DNA of 63,735 nucleotides, counting the filler, from Collodictyon triciliatum (lineage: Eukaryota), in NCBI GenBank assembly GCA_043381765.1. It is 17 parts of 17 records of this genome, joined end to end, with 100 filler letters (N's around TTAATTAATTAA, not from the genome) between each part and the next. Parts side by side here need not be neighbours in the genome. Positions count along the whole stretch, not along the records: positions 46,535 to 50,307 come from JBHJMP010006906.1; 16 more parts are not named here. The stretch is one strand, 5' to 3'. The translations under genes and the position numbers were made by a program. Within the stretch, counting starts at the first letter, position 1. Each line of letters starts with the position of its first letter. This document shows, in pieces, positions 3,782 through 62,886 of this stretch. Below the pieces are notes generated by a model that did not search any database, had not been told where the DNA came from, and saw only the letters and a program-made list of their open reading frames with translations.

Positions 3782-3881
3782 NNNNNNNNNNNNNNNNNNN
3801 NNNNNNNNNNNNNNNNNNNNNNNNNTTAATTAATTAANNNNNNNNNNNNNNNNNNNNNNNNNNNNNNNNNNNNNNNNNNNN
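3782..3881. other. Artificial contig spacer N44-TTAATTAATTAA-N44 (six-frame stop); first of 16, the others starting at 7663, 11544, 15424, 19303, 23181, 27058, 30935, 34811, 38687, 42561, 46435, 50308, 54182, 58055, 61924
   Basis: Identical 100-nt linkers separate segments whose lengths fall almost monotonically from 3781 to 3769 nt. Confidence 0.99.
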
Positions 3882-7662: not shown

Positions 7663-7880
7663 NNNNNNNNNNNNNNNNNNNNNNNNNNNNNNNNNNNNNN
7701 NNNNNNTTAATTAATTAANNNNNNNNNNNNNNNNNNNNNNNNNNNNNNNNNNNNNNNNNNNNACATACATACATACATACATACATACATACATACATAC
7801 ATACATACATACATACATACATACATACATACATACATACATACATACATACATACATGCACTCATCATTCTCTACGGTA

Positions 7881-27981: not shown

Positions 27982-29787
27982 TTATTCAGGCTTCAGTTCG
28001 AGCCCCAGAGCAGCGGCGATGCGAGCACCGTAGTCAGGGTCCACCTTTCGGAACAGCGCCACTTGGCGGGCCTGGATTTCCTTCTTGGCACCCTTCATAT
28101 GCTCAGCGATGTTGGATATCAACCTACCTTTCTCTTCGGCGCTCATTATGCGGTAAAGGTTCGCAGCTTGCTCAAAGTCAGAGTTTGAGTGATTCCTTGG
28201 AGCCTGAACAACGCTTCCGTGCAAAGGAGCAGCATGCCACAGGTGGGCTCTATTCTCAGTTGGTCCACCGAGAGAGTTAGGTTCGTAATGCGGCACGCGA
28301 GGCTGGTTTCCGTTCACGGTCATGAAGCCGTCGCGGAGGCCATTCTGCACCGTCGCTCGATACGGGCAGTTGACCGGGATTTGGGTGTGGTTGATGCCAA
28401 GGCGGTAGCGCTGCGTATCCGGGTACGAAAACAGCCTACCTTGCAGCAGTTTGTCCTCGGATGGCTCGATGCCGGGGACCAAATTGCCTGGCGAGAATGC
28501 CACCTGCTCGATTTCAGCAAAGTGGTTGTCAGGATTGCGGTCCAAGACCAACCTTCCAATGGGAATCAACGGATAGTCCGCATGCGGCCAGATCTTGGTG
28601 ATATCCAGGACGTCCCACTTGTATGTGGCAGCCTCGTGGATGGGCATCACCTGCATGGACACATTCCAAGCTGCAACACCGCCAGCCGCAATATGATCAA
28701 ACAGATCGCGAGTGGCTTGGTCGGGGTCTGTCCCGGCAAGGCGGGTTGCTTCCTCGTCCGTGTGGTTCTTGATTCCAGTCTCAGACACGTAGTGGAACTT
28801 CCAGTAAAAATACTCATTTTCCTTGTTAAACAACTTGAACATGTGTCCAGCATATCCGTGCATATGGCGGTAGGAGGCTGGGGTTCCGCGGTCAGAGAAA
28901 AGGATGGTCACTTGATGAAGAGACTCTGGGGTTAGAGAAAGGAAGTCCCAGAACATGTTCGCATCCTTCAGATTTGATTGAGGGTGTCGCTTCTGGGTGT
29001 GCACGAAGTCGGGAAACTATTGTGGGCGAAACGATTTCGAAAGTGTTTTTTTTAGGGTTCCAGTGCCGAAACGTTCCCTTGCTATTTATTTCATCTTCAA
29101 TTATATTTAAATTCATTTTAACATGAGGAGCATGTGCCAAAAGCTGTTCGCTAGTTAGAATCAGAATATATGCTCAATAAAGATAGTTACCTTGATGGGG
29201 TCACGAATAAAGAAGACCGGCGTGTTGTTCCCAACCATGTCGTAGTTTCCTTCCTCTGTGTAGTATTTCACTGCAAACCCACGTGGGTCTCTTACAGAGT
29301 CGGCGGATCCTTTTTCTCCTCCAACAGTCGAGAACCTGGCTAGAACGGGAGTCCTCTTGCCGACAGCCTCCAAGAACTTGGCTTTCGTATATGCTGTCAC
29401 GTCATTTGTGACCTCAAAGTATCCATGGGCTCCAGTTCCTGGGATTAAGCGGTAGCTCAGTCGAAAAAAAAGTTGAAACAAAAAAAACACAAATGGGACA
29501 GGCGAATTCACAGGGAATCTGTACTAAAATACAAATGTAGTAGCACATTCCGGGTGAGCTGTACAAGAATGAAATACGTGTGATAGTTGAACAAGGCAGG
29601 CGATTGAGAGAAGAAAAAAGGTTACCCTTAGCATGCACCACTCTCTCAGGAATCCTTTCGCGGTCAAAGTGAGCAATCTTGTCCAGGAAGTAGAGGTCTT
29701 ACAACAGGAGAGGACCGCCCACCCAGCGCTCATTGTCTGTTGGTTGTTGGGCACAGGATTTCCTGTCGAGGTCGCCAAGTACGACAT
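27982..29787 (-). pseudogene. CAT: Monofunctional heme catalase (exons 29626-29787, 29191-29438, 27982-29016) with a frameshift and nonsense codon in exon 1
   Basis: [44 protein letters not shown] and RLFSYPDTQ are present. Exon 1 lacks 1 nt near 29718-29724 and reads GPLLL-TAA-D (TAA at 29699-29701) where GPLLLQD is expected. The family call is firm; pseudogene status is less certain. Confidence 0.7.
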
Positions 29788-42810: not shown

Positions 42811-45800
42811 ATGAGCGAACCGACACCATCCATCCCACCAACCCCCTCAATCGTGGACAGTCTTGACCAGATCTATGTCGACGTTGAATCTGCCGCGAAA
42901 AGGTTTGTCCTTGCAGACCAAACAGTCTTCCATACAACCCTTGCAACCACACATGAAGGCGAAGCTACCTTGCTTTAAGCCTCTCAAGTGCATCACAAAG
43001 GAACGGTTGTGTAACAGAAGCAAAGACAGAAAGACAAGTATCGCTGCCTCCTTGCGATATCCCCCATGCACTTTTCTATATATCTCGCAAGGCTATGCGA
43101 CTGACTTATCCCTTCCCAGTGAACAAGTGTATAAAAAAGATTGTTTGCTCAGGTACCAGAGGATCGCATCGGCCTTTTCTGACCTGCACAAAACCACCCC
43201 CGACTTTTTTGTGCGCGCACCTGGAAGAGTCAATCTTATTGGTAATAAGACATATGCATAGCCAACTATTTGCTCATGGAAACACTCGCTGGTCGTTGTG
43301 TTATCGATGGGATATCTATGTCCATATGTGCACCATCCAGAATCTCACCTGATGCAATATCCCCTATGAATTACATGTGTGGATACACTCTTATGTTTTC
43401 ATGTAGACTCTTATGGTCGCTTTATTCTTTTTTTTTTTTTGATATTTATTATTGCGCTGCAAAATGACATCTTGTGGAACTACTTTATCATATTTCTTTT
43501 CTTGCAAACTCATTATTCTTGTTGTGTCTATCCAGGCGAACATGTGGACTACAGTGGATACCCCGTCTTGCCCATGGCGCTGGAGAGAGACATCGTCATT
43601 GCTGTGAAAGTGGATGCAGATTCGTCCAAACTGCACATTGCCAGTCTCGAGCCTGAGCGCTTCCCCTCCAAAGAATACGAAGGCTCACCAGATATCTTCA
43701 TTGACAGTTCCCGAGCAGAGTGGACAAACTATGTCCTGTGTGGTTACAAGGTTTTTTTGTTGTTGTTGTTGGTTATTTGTCTTTTTGTCTTTTTGTCTAT
43801 TTGTCTATTTGTCTATTTGTCTTTTTGTCTTTTTGTCTTTTGTATCTGTGGTAGGCGTGTAGAGATGCTGATGCCTTTTCCTTTGTAATAATCTATCAGT
43901 CCTTGATGTATTGGATCCTTGTAAACCGATATATTTTTTCTCTGTAAACTAGGGAACGCTGCTTACTGCAGAATACAACACTCCGGTGGGAATGAAAATG
44001 ATGATTCACGGAACAGTGCCCGCCGTACGTGAAATAATTTTTGCTTCTAAAAATGCTATATGTGGACTATGTGAAAGGTTGCATTTTTACCACGACAAAC
44101 TGCACAGTCAATAATCACCAACATTTTTCCAAATAATAATGATAATAATAACGATGTCGGTAGAGGTCGGGATTGTCGAGTTCATCTGCTCTTGTATGTG
44201 CCTCTGCCTTGGCCACTACCTTTGCTAATAAGCTCACCCTGTCAAAGGTTCGTTCTTGAATCACAAAACATTCTCTAAATATGCTTAAGCTATATTATTA
44301 TAACTATGGTAGACTTTTGGACTATTTCTTTTTCTTTTCTTCTTTTATTTTCTTTTTTCTTTTTTTTTTAAAAAAAAGCTTTTAGTTTCTTTCATTATAC
44401 TTATTTGGTATGCCATAATCTATTTATCCTTTACCCAGGTTCAACTTGCAACAATTGCAGCCAAAAGTGAAAAATATGTTGGCGTTGAAGGAGGCGGGTT
44501 AGTGATTCAAACAGTTCTCAATAATCAGTCCTCTCTATTCCTCAGAAAATTCAATCCTTTTCCACTTTTTTGATCCAGAATGGACCAGGCCATCTCTATG
44601 CTTGGGGAAAAGGATGTCGCTAAACTTATCGAATTTGACCCCATTCGTGCACACGACGTTCATTTACCAAAAGGGTGGGCGCTTTGGTCTCAAGCATAAA
44701 AATGAAGCATATCCCAGTAATTTATGCGATGCAGAGTGTTTTTTTCTTATCTGTTCCTACTTTTTAATACATTCTTTTTTCTTTCTCTTCTATTAGCTAT
44801 CATTGAAATCCTTGCCTGATTTCTTTCTCCCTTTTTATTGTGCTCATAGTTTTGCAGTTGTGATTAGCAATACATGTGTTGCTGCTGACAAGTATGTCAC
44901 ATCAGACCATAACTACAATTTAAGGTATGTTTTTTTTTTTTTTGAGGTATGCCTCTTCTGTCTCGTTTATTATTGAGATTATTATATATATATATATAAA
45001 ACAATTCGATTTATGAACCATTATATTCTCACATAGAGTTGTTGAGTGTCGACTGGCTGCTGTTCTTCTTGCAATGAAAATGGGACTGGATTACAAGACT
45101 GTTCGAACATTGATTGATGTTCAGGTTAGGCATAAATGTATCTTTATTTAATGTTGTCTTATTTCTTTATCATTTTATGAACAGTAAATTCAGTGGGCGT
45201 ACAAGAGTAGAAATATAATCTTGTCTAGACTCATTATGGCCTGACGTTTTCCTCTCGTTACAAAGACCAGCGGAATAAAGCATGTATTTGATTATAGAAA
45301 CTCTCGAATTTGAGCCTGAAAGAGTTGGAGGAAAAAGTCAACGAGCATATCAATCGAGAGCCTTACAGCAGAGAAAATATTGCTGAAATCCTGTCCCTTT
45401 CCGTAAGTCGAATGCGTGATTTGCAAAATAGATCCATATGATTACTTTTCGCTGAATGCTATTAATTCCCTGTTCAATCTATCGTCAGTTACTTATGTAT
45501 TATCTTCTACAGCTGCCATTACGAAAATACTTTTATTCAATTTTTTTTTTTTTGCTTTCTCTCCGCCAATGCATTTAATTTCGTGGGTGGTTATTTGCTC
45601 CTTACTATTATACTTTAATAAATGGATATTTACCATTTACCCGATTTTGCCCTGTTTATATCAATCAGGTGGAAGAGCTTGATGCCCAGTACGGCCGTGG
45701 GAATGTGATGAAAGCCAATCCTACCTATGAGCTCCACAAAAGAGCACTGCACGTTTACACTGAATCGCAGGTGTATTAATCGAAATAACCATATGTCGAA

Positions 45801-46330: not shown

Positions 46331-46854
46331 GTTTCCTCATATCATATCATATCATATCATATCATATCATATCATATCATATCATATCATATCATATCAT
46401 ATCATATCATATCATATCATATCATATCATATCANNNNNNNNNNNNNNNNNNNNNNNNNNNNNNNNNNNNNNNNNNNNTTAATTAATTAANNNNNNNNNN
46501 NNNNNNNNNNNNNNNNNNNNNNNNNNNNNNNNNNGAAAGAGAAAGAGAAAGAGAAAGAGAAAGAGAAAGAGAAAGAGAAAGAGAAAGAGAAAGAGAAAGA
46601 GAAAGAGAAAGAGAAAGAGAAAGAGAAATAAAACAATAGGCATAAAATAGCCGTGTTTTTATTTTTTTTGTTTTATTCTGTCTTCTTCGGGCATCCTTCA
46701 GGAAAAAGCGGTCAGAATTGATGGCAGAAAACTCAGAAAATCTCTACCTAAAATGATGGCTATTAAAGAACACATACTATTACACTTTGAATCGAATAAA
46801 GGAAAAAAAAGAACACATACTATTAAAATGAATTTTTTTACATTCCTAACCTCG

Positions 46855-49800
46855 TTAAGTTGTAACTTTCTGCCTCCACTCAGCTGCTATCTCGATGTCT
46901 TTTTCAACACCCCATCCATTTTCATAGCATTCAATAACAATAGAAAAAGCCTGTGGATACTTGACGGTTTCGCTAGTTTCACCATATCTATTGAGGACAC
47001 CTTCTTTCATGCAAGCCATTTCTTTCAGAGCGTTGAATGCCATCTTTGAGCCTTGTTGTGCTAGCTGCTTCAATTTTTCAAAGTTTCTTGCACCGCTATA
47101 CCATTCAGCAGCTTTATTAGCATCCTTTTCAACACCCCATCCATATTCGTAGCACTCAGCAACAATAGAAAAAGCCTGCGGATATTTGTACTTTCCAAAT
47201 TTTTTTAATTCAGTCGTTTCTTTCAGAGCGTTGAATGCTGTCTTTGATCCTTGTTGTGCTAGTTGCTTCAATTTTTCAAAGTTTTTTGCATTCTTGCACC
47301 ATTGGGCGACTTTTTCGTTGTCCTTCTCAACACCCCATCCATTTTCATAGCACTCAACCATCATCTGAGCTTGGTACTTTGTAAAATTACCCTGCTCACA
47401 ATAGGAAACAAAGTCTACATCAAACGAAGCAGCACCGATTGAAAGTAGGAGGGATTTGTTGAATTGACTCAATCCTTGGGCATTTCTGATTTGGATGCTT
47501 CCCCCCTCCAACTTTCTTGGACCCATAATCTGAACTGTCCTTGCATCACTTTTTCTGTTGAATACTGCGATAGTTTCATCAGAAATTACTCTCTTGACGA
47601 GGTATTTTCCTTCGGTGTATGTTGCCTCTGATTTTTGCAGACTGTGTGTTTGATTTCTTGTGGCTACATCCCAAATATCAATTGTGTTATCATGAATTCT
47701 CGATGCCAACCAGTTTTCACCATTCGGCCCTTGAAGACTACAAATGCTACTAACATCACCTTGATGTCCTTCTAATGTTTTGATGTGATTTCCTGTGGCT
47801 ACGTCCCAAATACGTATTGTTTTATCGAGACTTCCAGAAGCCAACCAATTTTCACCATTGGGTCCTTGAAAACTGCAAAAATTATTAACTATATATTTAT
47901 GTCCTTTTAACATTTTTATTTGTTTTCGTGTGACAACATCCCAAATACGTATTGTTTCATCACCACTTCCAGAAGCCAACCAGTTTTCACCATTCGGCCC
48001 TTGAATACTGCAAACGCTAGTAACACGTTCTGTGTGTCCATATAGTGTTTTGATCTGGTTTCCTGTCACTACATCCCAAATACGTATGGTTTTATCACGA
48101 CTTCCAGAAGCCAACCAGTTTTCACCATTCGGCCCTTGAATACTGCAAACACTACTCACATGTTCGGTATGTCCCTCTAATTTTTTGATTTGATTTTCTG
48201 TAGCTGCATCCCAAATACGTACTGTTTCATCACCACTCCCAGAAGCCAGCCAATTTTCACCATTTGGTCCTCTAATACTGCATATACTCATAATAGCACT
48301 TTTATGGCTCTCTAGTTTTTTGACTTGGCTTCCCGTGGCTACATCCCAAATACGTAGTATTTTGTCACTGCTTCCAGAAGCCAACCAATTTTCACCATTT
48401 GGTCCTGGAATGCTGCAAATACTAGTGACAATATCTTTCGTATCTACCTCTAATTTATCATGAGGAATTCCGAATTTCACATTATTCATATTTGCATTGT
48501 CAAATACACAATCACCAAGCATCGAATTCGAGAAATCAACACCATCCAAGTTGGCACCAGCGAAGTTTACACCATTAAGGATTGACTTATTAAGATTAGC
48601 ATATGGAATTTTGATGTTTGATAAATCCATTCCACTGAACGAAATATTCATAAAATTCAAAAGCGTGATGGCATCAGATGCAGCCTTTGATTTACTTTCA
48701 TCAGTCTTTGACATGTATACAATTCTGAATAATGATGATATGATTAGCTCACGATTCCATTCTTCATCCAGTTTTGCATCATCAAGAGTTTGATTGATGA
48801 ACTTCTTGACTCTTGTAAACTCGACAGGCTCTTTGTTAATTCCAATTTCTTTTGAATGGAGGGACAAGTATTCGCATGAATTTAATGTTCTGGCGTGAAT
48901 CCATCCGAGTTTATTAGCGAATTTGTCTCTCATGTTACCCCAAAATGCCACAGCTTGATTATACTGCTTCAGTTCCTTGTAATTCTTGTTGATTTCCTCG
49001 CAGCTATTCCATATTCCAAGATAATCCATGGAGTAAAGCTTCCCCAATAGATGAGTTAGTGCCACGTAAAGTTCAATGACGGCTTCGTGCTGTTTCTTGT
49101 CCTTAATCAGTCGAATAATATTATCGATTTGATGAGTGTCTTTCAGTGACATGATTGTCTTTGTCTCCTTCCTGATAACAACTGCCTTCTGGAAGTATTC
49201 AACGACTTGGTCCAATCTAAATGCATAAAAGGAAGAGATACTTTATTTTTATTGGGATTAATCCAAGTATTTGATTTTGTAATGTGAAAGTAAAAAAAAT
49301 TAATACCTTTCAAGCTCAAAATTTGTTCTGCCAACATTCTCAAGAGAAGTTGCATAATGAGTATGCTTTTCGCCCACTGTTCTTTTGTGAATATCCAGCA
49401 TCTTTGCATAGGCCTCCAAAGCACCCTTAAAGCTAGTACAACATGAATAAATGTATTGTTGCTTCAATAAAAAATAATAAAAAAAATTAATAAAGAGATA
49501 CTCCTTCAAATCGTGGCTGATATCTCCAATCATTTCATAGCAGGCCACAACATTCGGATGATTTTCGCCTAGGGCAGATACAAAAATATCCAATCATTGC
49601 TTAAATGAGAACAGGGCTTCAATTTTCCTGTAATTTAAAATGATTGAATATTAAATCATTAAAAATTATTTTAAGCAAATATGTCGGCTCTAGTAGCATC
49701 GATGCGATGGACATTAAAAAAAAAAACCAAAATACTCATGCTGGAAAAATTACGAGGAAGAACAAAAAAATATGAAAGAATCTAAAAACTTGAAATTCTA

Positions 49801-50130
49801 ACCTTCCACTGGCAAGATGAGCGTTTGCAATAAACTGGATTGTCGAGGCAACATATGCATGCTTATATCCCAGCGATTTTTCAATGATTGATTTCGCTTT
49901 TTCATAGTTTTCGATAGATTCCTTATTCCTTAAATTTATATTAGATCAATATTGTAAAATAAGTAATAGCCATATTTGATTCAGATGAATCAAATGAAAA
50001 GTAACTTATTTTCAGCCAGAAAGAGATGGCCATAGTTTCGATATGATATCGCAACAAAGGGATGCTCATTTCCGACTTTTTTTGGCGTATTTCCATGGCC
50101 TTTGTGTACTCAGCCAAAGCTTGCTCAATC
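46855..50130 (-). CDS. TPR-cassette / pentapeptide / WD40 / Sel1 multidomain protein; 5' end missing; two TPR exons disabled
   Basis: TPR exons at 50006-50130, 49803-49928, 49502-49627, 49307-49432; last exon 46855-49216 encodes pentapeptide repeats, six 45-aa WD40 repeats (GPNGENWLAS) and Sel1-like repeats (ECYExGWGVEKD). Confidence 0.85.
47640..48440 (-). repeat. Six 135-nt tandem coding repeats (WD40)
   Basis: The motif GCCA(A/G)CCA(A/G)TTTTCACCATT recurs at about 47705, 47840, 47975, 48110, 48245 and 48380. Confidence 0.93.
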
Positions 50131-50189
50131 CTGTGATATAAATTATTCAGTATACATACACTTTCAAAAAGAAGCAGAAAATAAGGAGT

Positions 50190-50307
50190 GAAATAAAATA
50201 CCATAAAATACCATAAAATACCATAAAATACCATAAAATACCATAAAATACCATAAAATACCATAAAATACCATAAAATACCATAAAATACCATAAAATA
50301 CCATAAA
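50190..50307 (+). repeat. (CCATAAAATA)n decamer repeat in the intron upstream of the TPR exons
   Basis: Direct tandem repeat at contig end. Confidence 0.95.
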
Positions 50308-50577
50308 NNNNNNNNNNNNNNNNNNNNNNNNNNNNNNNNNNNNNNNNNNNNTTAATTAATTAANNNNNNNNNNNNNNNNNNNNNNNNNNNNNNNNNNNNN
50401 NNNNNNNGAAGTCCCTCCATCGGCTTTTCTGTTGATGGCGCTTGATTAAACACCGCTTTCTCTTTCTCTTGCCTTTTTTTTTTTTTTTTTTGATACCCTC
50501 ATACTATCTGAAATGCATATTTTACTAAATCAAACACTGAGATGTTCCAATCATAGAAATAAGAAAATTGGGCGTAC

Positions 50578-52010
50578 CATGTGGATGCGGACAAGCTCTT
50601 TCAGCTCGTATTTTGCTCGGTAACGGTCCATCGAGTGATTCGAAAGAACAATCGCAGCCCCGCCGACACGGAACAGTGTATTGGACAGGAGCATTGCCTG
50701 TATGTTTAAGAAACACATAAAATTAAAAATAAGAATAAAAAAATCAGAGTAAAGTTGCGTGAATGAGAAAAACAATGGAATGGTGATCGGAATTGAATAG
50801 ATAAAAGACCTTGTCGTTGCCAAGGTACCAGTTCTGTGTGATGTTTTCCGTGCTCACAACAAGTGCGTATTTCCTGCGCTTCAGTTGCAGTTGCTCACGC
50901 GCCAGTGCGATGGCGATCAGTCCCGCGCTGCATCCCATTCCTGACAGATTGTAGCTGGAAATGTCCTTTCGCATCTTGAACTCGTTGATAATCTGAGAGG
51001 TCGGTTAAACTTCAGTACTTGTGATGGTTGTGATATGTGGAATTACACATCGATAAACATCCCTTCCACTCATCGTTTCTTAGTTTTCTCTCCATCTCAT
51101 TCACTAACCATGGCGCTGAGAGAAGGCGTGGGGTTGAAGAGACTGCAGTTTACGACAAGGATTTCAATGTCCTTTGGCTTCAGTCCACATCGCGCAAGTG
51201 CGTCCTTCACGATGGGGAACATCACATAACGGGCCTCATCACGCGCACTCTCCATATCGAACTTCTTTTCAATACTGGTGAGGGCTACATTCAAGCATAG
51301 AACTGTTAGTGAATAGAAACAAAGAGGGGAAAGGTGTATTAGCATGTACCCGAGAAATAGGGAGAAATAGAAGAGAAGAGTTGTTTATGAATGTATATGC
51401 TGACTGAACAGTAGGAAGGAGCATAATATTAAGTGTACTCACTCTTTGGAAAGTAGGTCTCCTCTCCAACACCATTTCGGTCCAGGGTGCGGAACTGAAA
51501 GTCAAGCGAATCCTTGTCGAAAAACTCTGTGATAATGGAGTGCTCGATGAAGCGTTTCTTTGGGACCTTGTGTTCGTCACCAATCCCGTGAAGAACAGAG
51601 AAGTTGAGAAGGTAGACGGAAGGCGCCGACGAGGCCCACCAGTAGAAAGCAATCACAAACACAAAGGCCGCAAGGGCAAGCAAAGGCTGCTGATTCTCAA
51701 GGACGAGGGTCTCATAGGAAGCTTTTTCTTCGGGAGTCATGTTTTGGAAAACATACACAGCGGAAGCCACAATTGGGACACACAGAGTCAGAGTCTTGGC
51801 GAAGCTTTTCAGGTGGAAAAACTTGTACGACAGGCGCTGATCGAGCTTGTTGGGTTCCCACGGATAGTCGTAGTGCGGATTCAGATTGTCAGTCGGGTAT
51901 TCGTACTTTGGAGGGTTTGGCAGCTGCTCAATTCCAGCGTTTGCGCGGCGGGCGTTTTCGGTCTCTGCTGCCACGGGGCGCTTTTTGGGGGCGGGGGCGG
52001 TCGAGGACAT
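50578..52010 (-). CDS. FAE1/CUT1-type 3-ketoacyl-CoA synthase (very-long-chain fatty acid elongase), 3' end missing
   Basis: [73 protein letters not shown]. Confidence 0.93.
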
Positions 52011-54491: not shown

Positions 54492-57728
<3,237 letters not shown>

Positions 57729-59628: not shown

Positions 59629-61320
59629 CTAAGAGATGCGTACCCTTTTTGATATACTACTCAAATGTTGAATATGAACGCCACTGACCTGGTGGGCCTG
59701 ATGGGGGTATTGCGCCTGTGTTTGTTGGGTGTTGGGATGTAGGTAGCTACGAGGGGCATCGTAACTTCCTTGTTGATGCCCGTTGTGTGACCGACTCTCG
59801 GAGAACCCTGAGTCCGAAGTGGTGCCCTGGTGGGGCTCCTGCTCTTGTTCTCGTTCTTGCTCGCGCTCACCTTCTTGCCTTTCACGAGGAAGGGCCATGA
59901 CTGTATTGAGCATTTTCATAACAGCTTGGTTTTGCTCCACCCAGACGACAAACTTCGCTTGTTGTTGAGGGGTAAATAGGGTTCGAATTTCATTCACACA
60001 TCGCTGCAGTGAGTCGAGTCTCAAGCATATTTCATCGCGAAGGAGGTCGAACTTGTGGATGCAGGAAGTTAGCTCCTTGTTTTGTGCGCGAATGAAGTCC
60101 CTATACTGAATTAACCGCTGGCGCTGCTCATCAGTCCAGCCTAGTTCGTCAGACAACATACTCCATATGGTCCCTCCTGATGATTTTGACCCCATGTCAT
60201 AGAACTCATCGTGTTGGTCAAGGCCCCACAGAATGAACTTGACTTGCTGTGCAGGAATAAGCAAATCTTTAATTTGCTCTAGGTGGTATAGAATGGCAGA
60301 TTGGCCTTGTTTGTAGCAAATATCAGAGAACCGGGCAAGTAGAACAGCACAGTCCTTTTCTGTGTCTTTCCCATTCACTAGACCCTCCAGGGCGATGGCT
60401 ACTTTACGCTGTTCATCTCTAAGCTTCTCCTTGGTGTACCAATATTCTTGCTGAAGCTCCTGGATTCGGCTCGACAGGCGCCCAACTTTTTCTTCCAATG
60501 ATTGTATGTATGCTTTCTTCCTACGTCTGCACAGACGTGCTGACTCTCGATTCTTTTCAAGCCTTTTTTTAAATGAATAGTTAGCATCCAAATATACAGG
60601 CATTTTCAAGTGTGGGTGAGTTTGTATAAGGATGGTATGGTATAGTAATGAGTAATGGAACTGCGATGTTATCAAGTATATTATTGATTCACATGTATTG
60701 AAATGTATGGTCTTAGAAAAGTGGAGAGATATAGAATTAGTGATTATGGTGGTTTCGGGAAGGGAGGATTACGACTCTACTTTTTGGAACGCTTAGATTC
60801 ATCTGCCACAGATTCCGTCATATCATCAAACCCTGAAAAACCTTTGGTGTCGTAAGATGAGACTGTTGCGAGGGGGGACATGCTAGGCTCGCTATATTCG
60901 AAGGATGATGACGCTGGAAACTTTGGATACGGACTTCGCTGCTGCGTTTGGTGGGAGTGCGATATCGCGTGCGAGTGTGCATTTGTATGGGTGTGTGAGT
61001 GTGAATGCGGGTAGGAGTGGGGCTGGGGCTGCGAAAACCCTGGTTGTTTGCGTTTCAAACGTATGTTAAAACATATGGGTGACCCAGCTAATCAGCGTTT
61101 CTGATGTTCTCTCGTGGAGAAATGATTTGGAAATAGTAATAAAAGAAAAAATATGTTAATAATAGACGTCTGGATAAAGGCTCGTATGAGCCAAGTGGAT
61201 GAAGGTAAATTCTAGCTGCCTCTGTCTAGTACCTTGCACGTTGGAAGGAAAGGCTTGTTCGAAATTGTCGAAGGTAAAGGGATCCACTCGTCTTCTAGGT
61301 GGCTGGCCGTTAAGGGGACT
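59629..61320 (-). CDS. bZIP transcription factor with a C-terminal DOG1-like helical region; ends uncertain, with probable further exons to about 58274
   Basis: KRSK|KLEKNRESARLCRRRKKAYIQSLEEKVGRLSSRIQEL, followed by a helical region ending FTPQQQAKFVVWVE. Confidence 0.82.
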
Positions 61321-61923: not shown

Positions 61924-62886
61924 NNNNNNNNNNNNNNNNNNNNNNNNNNNNNNNNNNNNNNNNNNNNTTAATTAATTAANNNNNNNNNNNNNNNNNNNNN
62001 NNNNNNNNNNNNNNNNNNNNNNNCTTTTTCCTTTTTCCTTTTTCCTTTTTCCTTTTTCCTTTTTCCTTTCTCCTTTTTCCTTTTACCTTTTACCTTTTAC
62101 CTTTCTCCTTTTATCTTTTACCTTTTACCTTTCTCCTTTTATCTTTTTCCTTTTTCCTTTTTCCTTTCTCCTTTTTCCTTTTACCTTTTACCTTTTACCT
62201 TTCTCCTTTTATCTTTTTCCTTTTTCCTTTTCCTTTTTCCTTTTTCCTTTTTCCTTTTATCTTTTTACTTTTTCTTTTTCTTTTTCTTTTTCTCTTTCTT
62301 TATCTTTCTCTCATTTCTTTCATTTCTTTCATTTCTTTCATTTCTTAATTGTAATTACAGTCGCTTCTGTCAATCGTTTTCATGCTACGTTATGTTATGT
62401 TATGTTATGTTATGTTATGTTATGTTATGTCATGTCATGTCATGTCATGTCATGTATTGTGTGTTTATATCCTCTGCGCTCCGTTGTTCGCAATGTTTGA
62501 AGAATTTTTTTGCCTATATCATCGTTCTTGCTTATTTCGTTCCTCCGTTTGGGGGCCATTGGCTTCTAAGCATGTTTCTCTGGGCATTTTGTCGCACTTC
62601 TTCCCCCACTATTTACTCCTCTAATCATATCTTTATTTACACGCACTGTATCTGGTACCATCATTTCTTTTGATGTCATTTTTGCAAGGTTGATCTAGAG
62701 CAATATGCAACACTTTCATTTCTCATATTTGTAGTCTCCCTATTTTTATCCATTGGTATTGTCCTACATTATCACCAATCCTTCTTATCCTCATAATATC
62801 CTTTATTCTACCTTTTTATTTATTCATTTAATCTTACAATCCTCTACCAACGAATCAACCGAAAACATGGCTTATCAATCATCCAG

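Follow-up and report, generated by a model that had tools for sequence, protein, structure and literature searches.

In the brown alga Ectocarpus, the portion of Zambounis et al. (2012; PMC3341825) used here describes 13 NB-ARC loci whose tetratricopeptide repeat (TPR) domain is composed of 42-amino-acid exons (124 exons of 126 nt), with inactivated TPR exons in introns and 5 pseudogenes among 24 loci. In the portion of Teng et al. (2024; PMC11378527) available to us, ROCO genes carry phase-2 exons that each encode a single leucine-rich repeat (LRR) and are alternatively spliced, and the part of the Acanthamoeba genome paper (PMC4053784) that we consulted mentions one NB-ARC-TPR homologue. Symmetric exons that hold one repeat each have been suggested, for the NLR-like genes of brown algae, to be a means of generating receptor diversity. 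The splicing of NB-ARC-TPR genes is reportedly the subject of a 2023 Plant Journal paper, which we know only as a reference cited by Teng and colleagues. No description of the TPR-exon design outside brown algae was found in the literature searched, a search whose scope left out subscription papers. Here we describe a gene with 126-nt TPR exons in a 63,735-nt stretch of DNA (the window, taken as a whole) from the Collodictyon triciliatum assembly GCA_043381765.1. Its four visible TPR exons appear to form an old array of fixed order in the 3′ part of a large NLR-like gene of NACHT type, and the lesions that interrupt two of the four are probably incidental.

The gene is on the minus strand of a 3773-nt piece (46535-50307), and all features of it given below are on that strand. 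The visible part begins with the 3′ end of an upstream intron (50131..50192, terminating in ...TATCACAG). TPR exon 1 (50006..50130, 125 nt) follows, and then an intron of 77 nt (49929..50005, 21% GC), TPR exon 2 (49803..49928, 126 nt), an intron of 175 nt (49628..49802, 26% GC, without a relic TPR exon), TPR exon 3 (49502..49627, 126 nt), an intron of 69 nt (49433..49501, 19% GC), TPR exon 4 (49307..49432, 126 nt) and an intron of 90 nt (49217..49306). All four complete introns run from GT to AG. The acceptor AG of the last one (49217-49218) leads into a terminal exon of 786 codons (46855-49216) that closes with a TAA stop at 46855-46857. Each TPR exon encodes one 42-amino-acid TPR and is read at offset 1, as 1 nt + 41 codons + 2 nt, which makes it phase 2 on both sides. 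Exons 2 and 4 are intact, the frame of exon 1 is shifted at an A7 run (50077-50083; T7 on the plus strand), and exon 3 has an in-frame TGA at 49594-49596. An earlier note on this DNA had reported these exon coordinates, lengths and phase-2 GT-AG borders, and they hold, each exon being preceded by AG and trailed by GT, the two broken exons included. Its placing of the two lesions was also right, as was its description of the terminal exon as lesion-free, since that exon is open to the TAA. The exons are symmetric as it had claimed, so that loss of a whole exon keeps the frame, and the design of one TPR per 126-nt exon is real and the same as that published for Ectocarpus NB-ARC-TPR genes.

Exons 2-4 and the terminal exon were joined computationally and aligned by blastp with P0006, a transcript-derived protein of 1219 amino acids: 276 of 644 positions are identical (43%), with 2 gaps and an E-value of 5e-176. 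We take this alignment to be the strongest support for the exon model. It is collinear, and GC content is 38-42% in the exons against 19-26% in the introns, so the model is not a chance pattern. Singly, the two intact TPR exons match Pfam TPR_12 with E-values of 7.9e-5 and 9.6e-5; their scores of 23.2 and 22.9 bits fall below the 30.1-bit cut-off, as expected of one repeat.

Relatives were sought with the linker and pentapeptide part of the terminal exon (259 amino acids) among 1.84 billion representative proteins. Four proteins have an E-value of at most 1e-30, and three of them span the whole query: P0138 (2520 amino acids, E 2.2e-56), P0139 (2619 amino acids, E 1.5e-50) and P0006 (E 3.4e-47), the E-values applying to query residues 2-256. 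The full-length P0139 shows what may lie upstream of the TPRs. It matches DUF4062 at 43.8 bits (cut-off 24.7) and NACHT at 26.7 bits (cut-off 26.7), its P-loop region scores just below the nSTAND1 cut-off and at 24.3 bits for NPHP3_N (cut-off 24.8), and NB-ARC has 0 matches in this upstream part at an E-value of at most 0.01. Its downstream part contains TPR_12/TPR_10 matches and many WD40 repeats. P0006 begins in the helical region that follows the NACHT-like P-loop of P0139, has an identical module order, and matches TPR_NPHP3 at 89.7 bits, under the 100-bit cut-off of that profile. The family architecture in the full-length relative is DUF4062, NACHT-like NTPase, TPR, pentapeptide, WD40 and Sel1. 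From homology to the modules of P0139 and P0006, the window gene would be the 3′ part (final 3.7 kb) of a large STAND gene that is NLR-like and of NACHT rather than NB-ARC type, with an NTPase predicted from the relatives. A word-indexed search with residues 1-250 at near lengths returned only pentapeptide proteins (17 matches) and missed P0006. The nearest protein Atlas clusters are cyanobacterial, with TPR and pentapeptide (score 0.80), and serve as a lead only.

Closer relatives are shorter: P0287 (392 amino acids, 76-79% identical), P0140 (132 amino acids, 76%) and P0224 (77 amino acids, 51%). The gene call of P0287 opens with an out-of-frame reading of the last part of TPR exon 4, crosses the intron and continues in the terminal exon, which suggests a homologous intron at the same position between these two exons. 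Many variants of 90-99% identity on environmental contigs are stacked on the WD40 part, and exact environmental matches in the terminal exon (including 47298-47949) comprise 292 nt from a soil metagenome, 184 nt from a freshwater metagenome and 215 nt from a polyA metatranscriptome. These matches suggest that the organism is free-living, in fresh water or soil, and carries the family in several copies. Two scans of metagenome contigs for related loci gave 153 and 245 pattern matches, 0 of them confirmed by tblastn.

To examine the order of the TPRs, we divided the TPR part of P0006, P0139 and P0138 into 42-residue units, in register with the window exons, and scored each exon (BLOSUM62) against every unit. 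In 12 of the 12 comparisons (four exons by three relatives), an exon has its highest score with the unit that occupies its own position, counting from the linker. The counterparts of exons 1, 2 and 3 are units 305, 347 and 389 of P0006 and units 1206, 1248 and 1290 of P0139, and exon 4 shares 23 of 41 residues with its positional unit in each of these two proteins. Compared with one another, the four window units are identical at only 7-12 of 41 residues (17-29%) and at 39-51% of nucleotides. When the four units were used as tblastn queries, neither the introns nor the remaining 16 pieces of the window gave another TPR exon (best outside match, E 0.08), and no relic or opposite-strand copy turned up in any of these places. 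Since each exon has its own counterpart in distant relatives, the array would be old and of fixed order, not a pool of interchangeable cassettes, at the one locus examined. The TPR order appears to have been kept since the split of these approximately 40%-identical lineages. The cassette shuffling or swapping proposed in the earlier note is contradicted by the positional matches, by the low nucleotide identity among units and by the lack of relic exons in the window.

How the locus compares with Ectocarpus NB-ARC-TPR genes can now be stated. With those genes, as far as they are covered by the source consulted, it shares one repeat per 126-nt exon and an NLR-like STAND context; symmetric exons allowing in-frame gain or loss of units may be a further likeness, and the inactivated TPR exons of the Ectocarpus family would have a parallel in the two lesion-bearing exons if those lesions are real. 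The two systems differ in their NTPase, which in the window gene's relatives is NACHT/NPHP3-like with an N-terminal DUF4062 instead of NB-ARC, and in the pentapeptide, WD40 and Sel1 modules that follow the TPRs here. Repeat order is fixed across the relatives of the one locus examined, the opposite of the Ectocarpus pattern, and the broken exons have intact splice sites and are members of the array, where that source describes inactivated exons lying within introns. The brown-algal analogy of the earlier note therefore stands for the 126-nt TPR exon design but not for the NTPase, which by the profile matches of P0139 would be NACHT-like and not NB-ARC.

Two other groups of proteins resemble parts of the gene. 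Nephrocystin-3-like NACHT-TPR STAND proteins likewise have 42-amino-acid TPRs of the kinesin-light-chain type downstream of a P-loop STAND NTPase, a likeness for which the Pfam scores are at or below the cut-offs; they differ by the pentapeptide-WD40-Sel1 extension of the window gene, and to our knowledge NPHP3 has no pentapeptide, WD40 or Sel1 modules. Cyanobacterial NACHT/NB-ARC pentapeptide-WD40 proteins and fungal HET-E/NWD-type NACHT-WD40 proteins are 34-48% identical in the WD40 part, and cyanobacterial matches with the pentapeptide family PF00805 (e.g. P0033, P0034 and P0083) are like the window gene in that module as well. However, coverage is only 31-50% of the query (the WD40 part), and the window gene has introns. 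WD40 repeats that are highly conserved among themselves and under positive selection at surface positions are a trait of the fungal NWD/HET-E proteins. The window units have 53-78% protein and 63-84% nucleotide identity between themselves and pairwise ratios of non-synonymous to synonymous substitution rates (dN/dS) of 0.17-0.62; over the pairs among these six units there appears to be no overall sign of diversifying selection. No paper concerning a protist protein of such domain architecture was found, judged by titles and abstracts.

Each broken exon contains exactly one lesion. At the A7 run, one of only two homopolymers of at least 7 nt in the coding sequence, the reading frame shifts from 'IEQALAEYTKAMEIRQK' in offset 1 to '..VGNEHPFVAISYRNYGHLFLAEN' in offset 0. 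The position of the TGA in exon 3 is alanine in P0006 by the blastp alignment, and alanine in P0139 as read by eye from the unit listing. Measured from the contig end at a microsatellite, the frameshift is at 224 nt and the TGA at 711 nt. In identity to their counterparts the broken exons resemble the intact ones (of 41 residues, 16 and 12 against 14 and 23 for P0006; 16 and 17 against 14 and 23 for P0139), and their GC fractions of 0.42 and 0.40 are exon-like. With a single lesion each, retained similarity, exon-like GC content and intact splice sites, the broken exons seem no more decayed than the intact ones, so the lesions would be either recent or unreal. Thirteen sequencing runs had word shares of 0.05-0.08 each, none reaching half, and among the pieces listed for the four runs that were aligned none spans either lesion. 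In the TPR-exon bins of those four runs, depth does not exceed 1.02 (X1) and 1.84 (X3), values confined to single bins, and exact pieces occur only in the terminal exon.

The state of the terminal exon was assessed with a relative-rate count over 344 aligned residues, restricted to sites where the outgroups agree. Where P0006 and P0139 agree, unique changes number 4 in the window sequence and 9 in P0287; they fall to 1 and 5 once P0138 serves as a third outgroup. The window copy thus appears to have evolved no faster than P0287, and its terminal exon is without detectable sign of decay by this count. Of 31 coding differences between the terminal exon and environmental contigs, 18 are synonymous and 13 non-synonymous, which would reflect constraint on the family, not on the window copy. 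A polyA metatranscriptome contig matches 47735-47949 (215 nt) with 0 differences; this is a weak hint of transcription of the locus, since an identical paralogue or DNA in the library could explain it. From the lack of excess lineage-specific changes in the terminal exon, it is reasonable to consider the gene alive or only just inactivated. The living gene of the earlier note is accordingly upheld as to a terminal exon free of decay, in the form 'alive or only just dead'.

We consider it probable that this is an ordinary, fixed-order TPR exon array in a member of an NLR-like family and that the two lesions are incidental. The protein would then run from DUF4062 through a NACHT-like P-loop NTPase, some six or seven 42-amino-acid TPRs of the kinesin-light-chain type, a helical linker and a pentapeptide segment to a WD40 propeller and Sel1-like units, the upstream part of this order being modelled on a full-length relative and lying outside the window. 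Its TPR domain would be built of symmetric 126-nt phase-2 exons with one repeat each, and by analogy with other STAND NTPases the repeats may sense ligands or partners by binding them and so govern whether the NTPase oligomerises. The lesions would be base-call or assembly errors, or would mark a copy, one of several in its family, that was inactivated very recently. Given incidental lesions, the chances are about even between at least one artefact and two real lesions in a young pseudogene or null allele; an error fits the frameshift, which is in an A7 homopolymer and near the microsatellite contig end. Several points weigh on the other side. For two lesions placed at random over 2862 coding nt, the probability that the 503 nt of TPR exons receive both is (503/2862)^2 = 0.03 by our own arithmetic in a post-hoc test, and this concentration is the chief point for exon skipping or for use of the terminal exon only. 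The TGA is outside the typical end-of-contig error zone. Consecutive Pfam matches to two other genes in the window, for a catalase (profile 27-382) and for an FAE1/KCS-like enzyme (profile 8-225), are contiguous, with introns present and 0 frame breaks, so the assembly is not generally error-ridden. The lesions stand as assembly sequence, and the predicted upstream NTPase would lie off the contig.

A living gene might instead skip exons 1 and 3, keep its frame and set a shorter TPR sensor on an intact pentapeptide-WD40-Sel1 part, which we think unlikely. Such skipping is open to this gene in that omission of any of the four symmetric exons preserves the frame and the broken exons have retained their splice sites; only TPR exons carry lesions, and the 786-codon exon is whole and shows no decay. 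A search for alternative in-frame open sub-exons gave 0 candidates for exon 3 and 5 for exon 1, all of them fragments (truncated half-repeats); no sub-exon splice site gets round the lesions, and whole-exon skipping would be the sole rescue. Alternative splicing of tandem single-repeat LRR exons in brown-algal ROCO genes, as described in the part of PMC11378527 seen here, offers a precedent. The polyA match adds a weak hint of transcription only, and it is limited to the WD40 part and covers no junction. Against skipping, all three relatives, one of them transcript-derived, retain the four units in order, so the canonical product includes them; exons skipped for long should have decayed beyond one lesion each and a similarity equal to that of intact exon 2; and an error near the contig end fits the frameshift in the A7 run. 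That both lesions are real and the gene is in use, with a working NACHT-type receptor made by omitting the lesion-bearing symmetric TPR exons, is quite unlikely. We rate as very unlikely the use of the terminal exon alone, in a 5′-truncated duplicate with a downstream start whose TPR exons are non-coding relics starting to decay. Both lesions do precede the terminal exon, the contig stops shortly before the TPR exons with no NTPase exon shown attached, and the environmental call P0287 also starts near the junction, yet that is a prokaryote-style call across an intron. Two of the four TPR exons are nevertheless undamaged and have good splice sites, the GC content of all four is still exon-like, each resembles its positional counterpart in the relatives, and the relatives are long fused proteins.

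An active system that shuffles or swaps cassettes and so diversifies recognition, as proposed for Ectocarpus, has very little to recommend it here. The exons are the same single-repeat exons of 126 nt and 42 amino acids as in the Ectocarpus NB-ARC-TPR genes, for which the portion of PMC3341825 used here also records inactivated TPR exons; against this stand the 12 positional best matches out of 12 in three relatives, the 39-51% nucleotide identity among units and the finding that neither the introns nor the rest of the window hold relic or opposite-strand TPR exons, all from one locus only. Read-through of the lesions, with an amino acid inserted at the TGA and a programmed frameshift at the A7 run, is scarcely credible. 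Nothing beyond the intact context favours it, while the terminal exon has 22 TGG and 0 TGA among its 786 codons, the alanine at the stop position in P0006 (and by eye in P0139) is unlike a tryptophan or selenocysteine site, and an Rfam scan of the contig gave 0 matches. Stop-codon use at the ends of long open reading frames (12 TAA, 6 TGA and 5 TAG) was counted and set aside as uninformative, because the frame ends may be introns.

With an old, fixed-order array as the preferred reading, the locus is a warning that a one-repeat-per-exon design is not in itself a sign of shuffling. It also places the 126-nt TPR exon design in a gene with relatives of NACHT type, and the design may thus extend beyond one algal lineage. 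If the lesions are real and the exons are skipped, the gene would offer a simple test, set up by nature, of whether an immune-like receptor family can buffer mutations by dropping exons in frame. With one repeat per exon, nonsense and frameshift mutations in an NLR-like family would then be buffered and sensors could vary in length, a parallel to brown-algal repeat-exon splicing in another NTPase class and apparently another lineage.

The terminal exon starts with a helical linker (48649..49216), which is conserved in P0006, P0139, P0138 and P0287. It continues with a pentapeptide-repeat segment (48469..48648), six WD40 units of 135 nt (47623..48432) and three Sel1-like units with a GWGVEKD motif (46858..47403), after which comes the TAA; the 3′ flank (46629..46854) is a probable 3′ untranslated region. 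Tandem Repeats Finder also reports a 405-nt period in the WD40 region (47623-48432). The relatives hold more WD40 than the six units of the window, with 7 stretches in P0006 and 14 in P0139. The start of the first unit (about 48424-48456) reads 'LEVDTKDIVTS' in the window, 'LEGHTSAVI-S' in P0287 and 'LQGHQDWVR-T' in P0006, so that relative to both the GH dipeptide is gone and one residue is inserted; the sixth unit is without the motif 'SGS.D.T.R'. The Sel1-like unit (..ECYENGWGVEKD..) occurs three times in the window, in DNA copies 81-82% identical and spaced by 198 and 225 nt, and P0006 and P0139 each end with a single such unit (read from the sequences by eye, uncounted). This triplication seems to be a tandem expansion within the exon, specific to the lineage.

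The contig of the gene ends in microsatellites on both sides, unstranded as annotated. At 50193..50307 are 11.5 copies of (ATAAAATACC)n, where the assembly breaks inside the intron upstream of TPR exon 1 and cuts the gene 62 nt upstream of this first visible TPR exon; the opposite end (46535..46628) is (GAAAGA)n. Most of the 17 window pieces, each of about 3.77 kb, are terminated by microsatellites or homopolymers. The pieces are joined by 16 linkers (32 N-runs) of the form N44-TTAATTAATTAA-N44, a six-frame stop spacer, at 3782-3881, 7663-7762 and so on to 61924-62023. Because of these linkers, the FAE1/KCS-like gene beyond 50408 is not a genomic neighbour of the TPR-exon gene.

Elsewhere in the window, a 256-amino-acid open frame on another contig (25541-26308, minus strand) has LRR_8 and LRR_14 matches (E 1e-16 to 1e-18) and may belong to a repeat-receptor-type gene. 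Ordinary genes on other contigs encode the catalase (27985-29698, minus), the FAE1/KCS-like condensing enzyme (50554-52010, minus), a methionyl-tRNA synthetase (55556-57728, minus) and a bZIP protein (59632-60768, minus), and a galactokinase signature is present at 42815-43885 on the plus strand.

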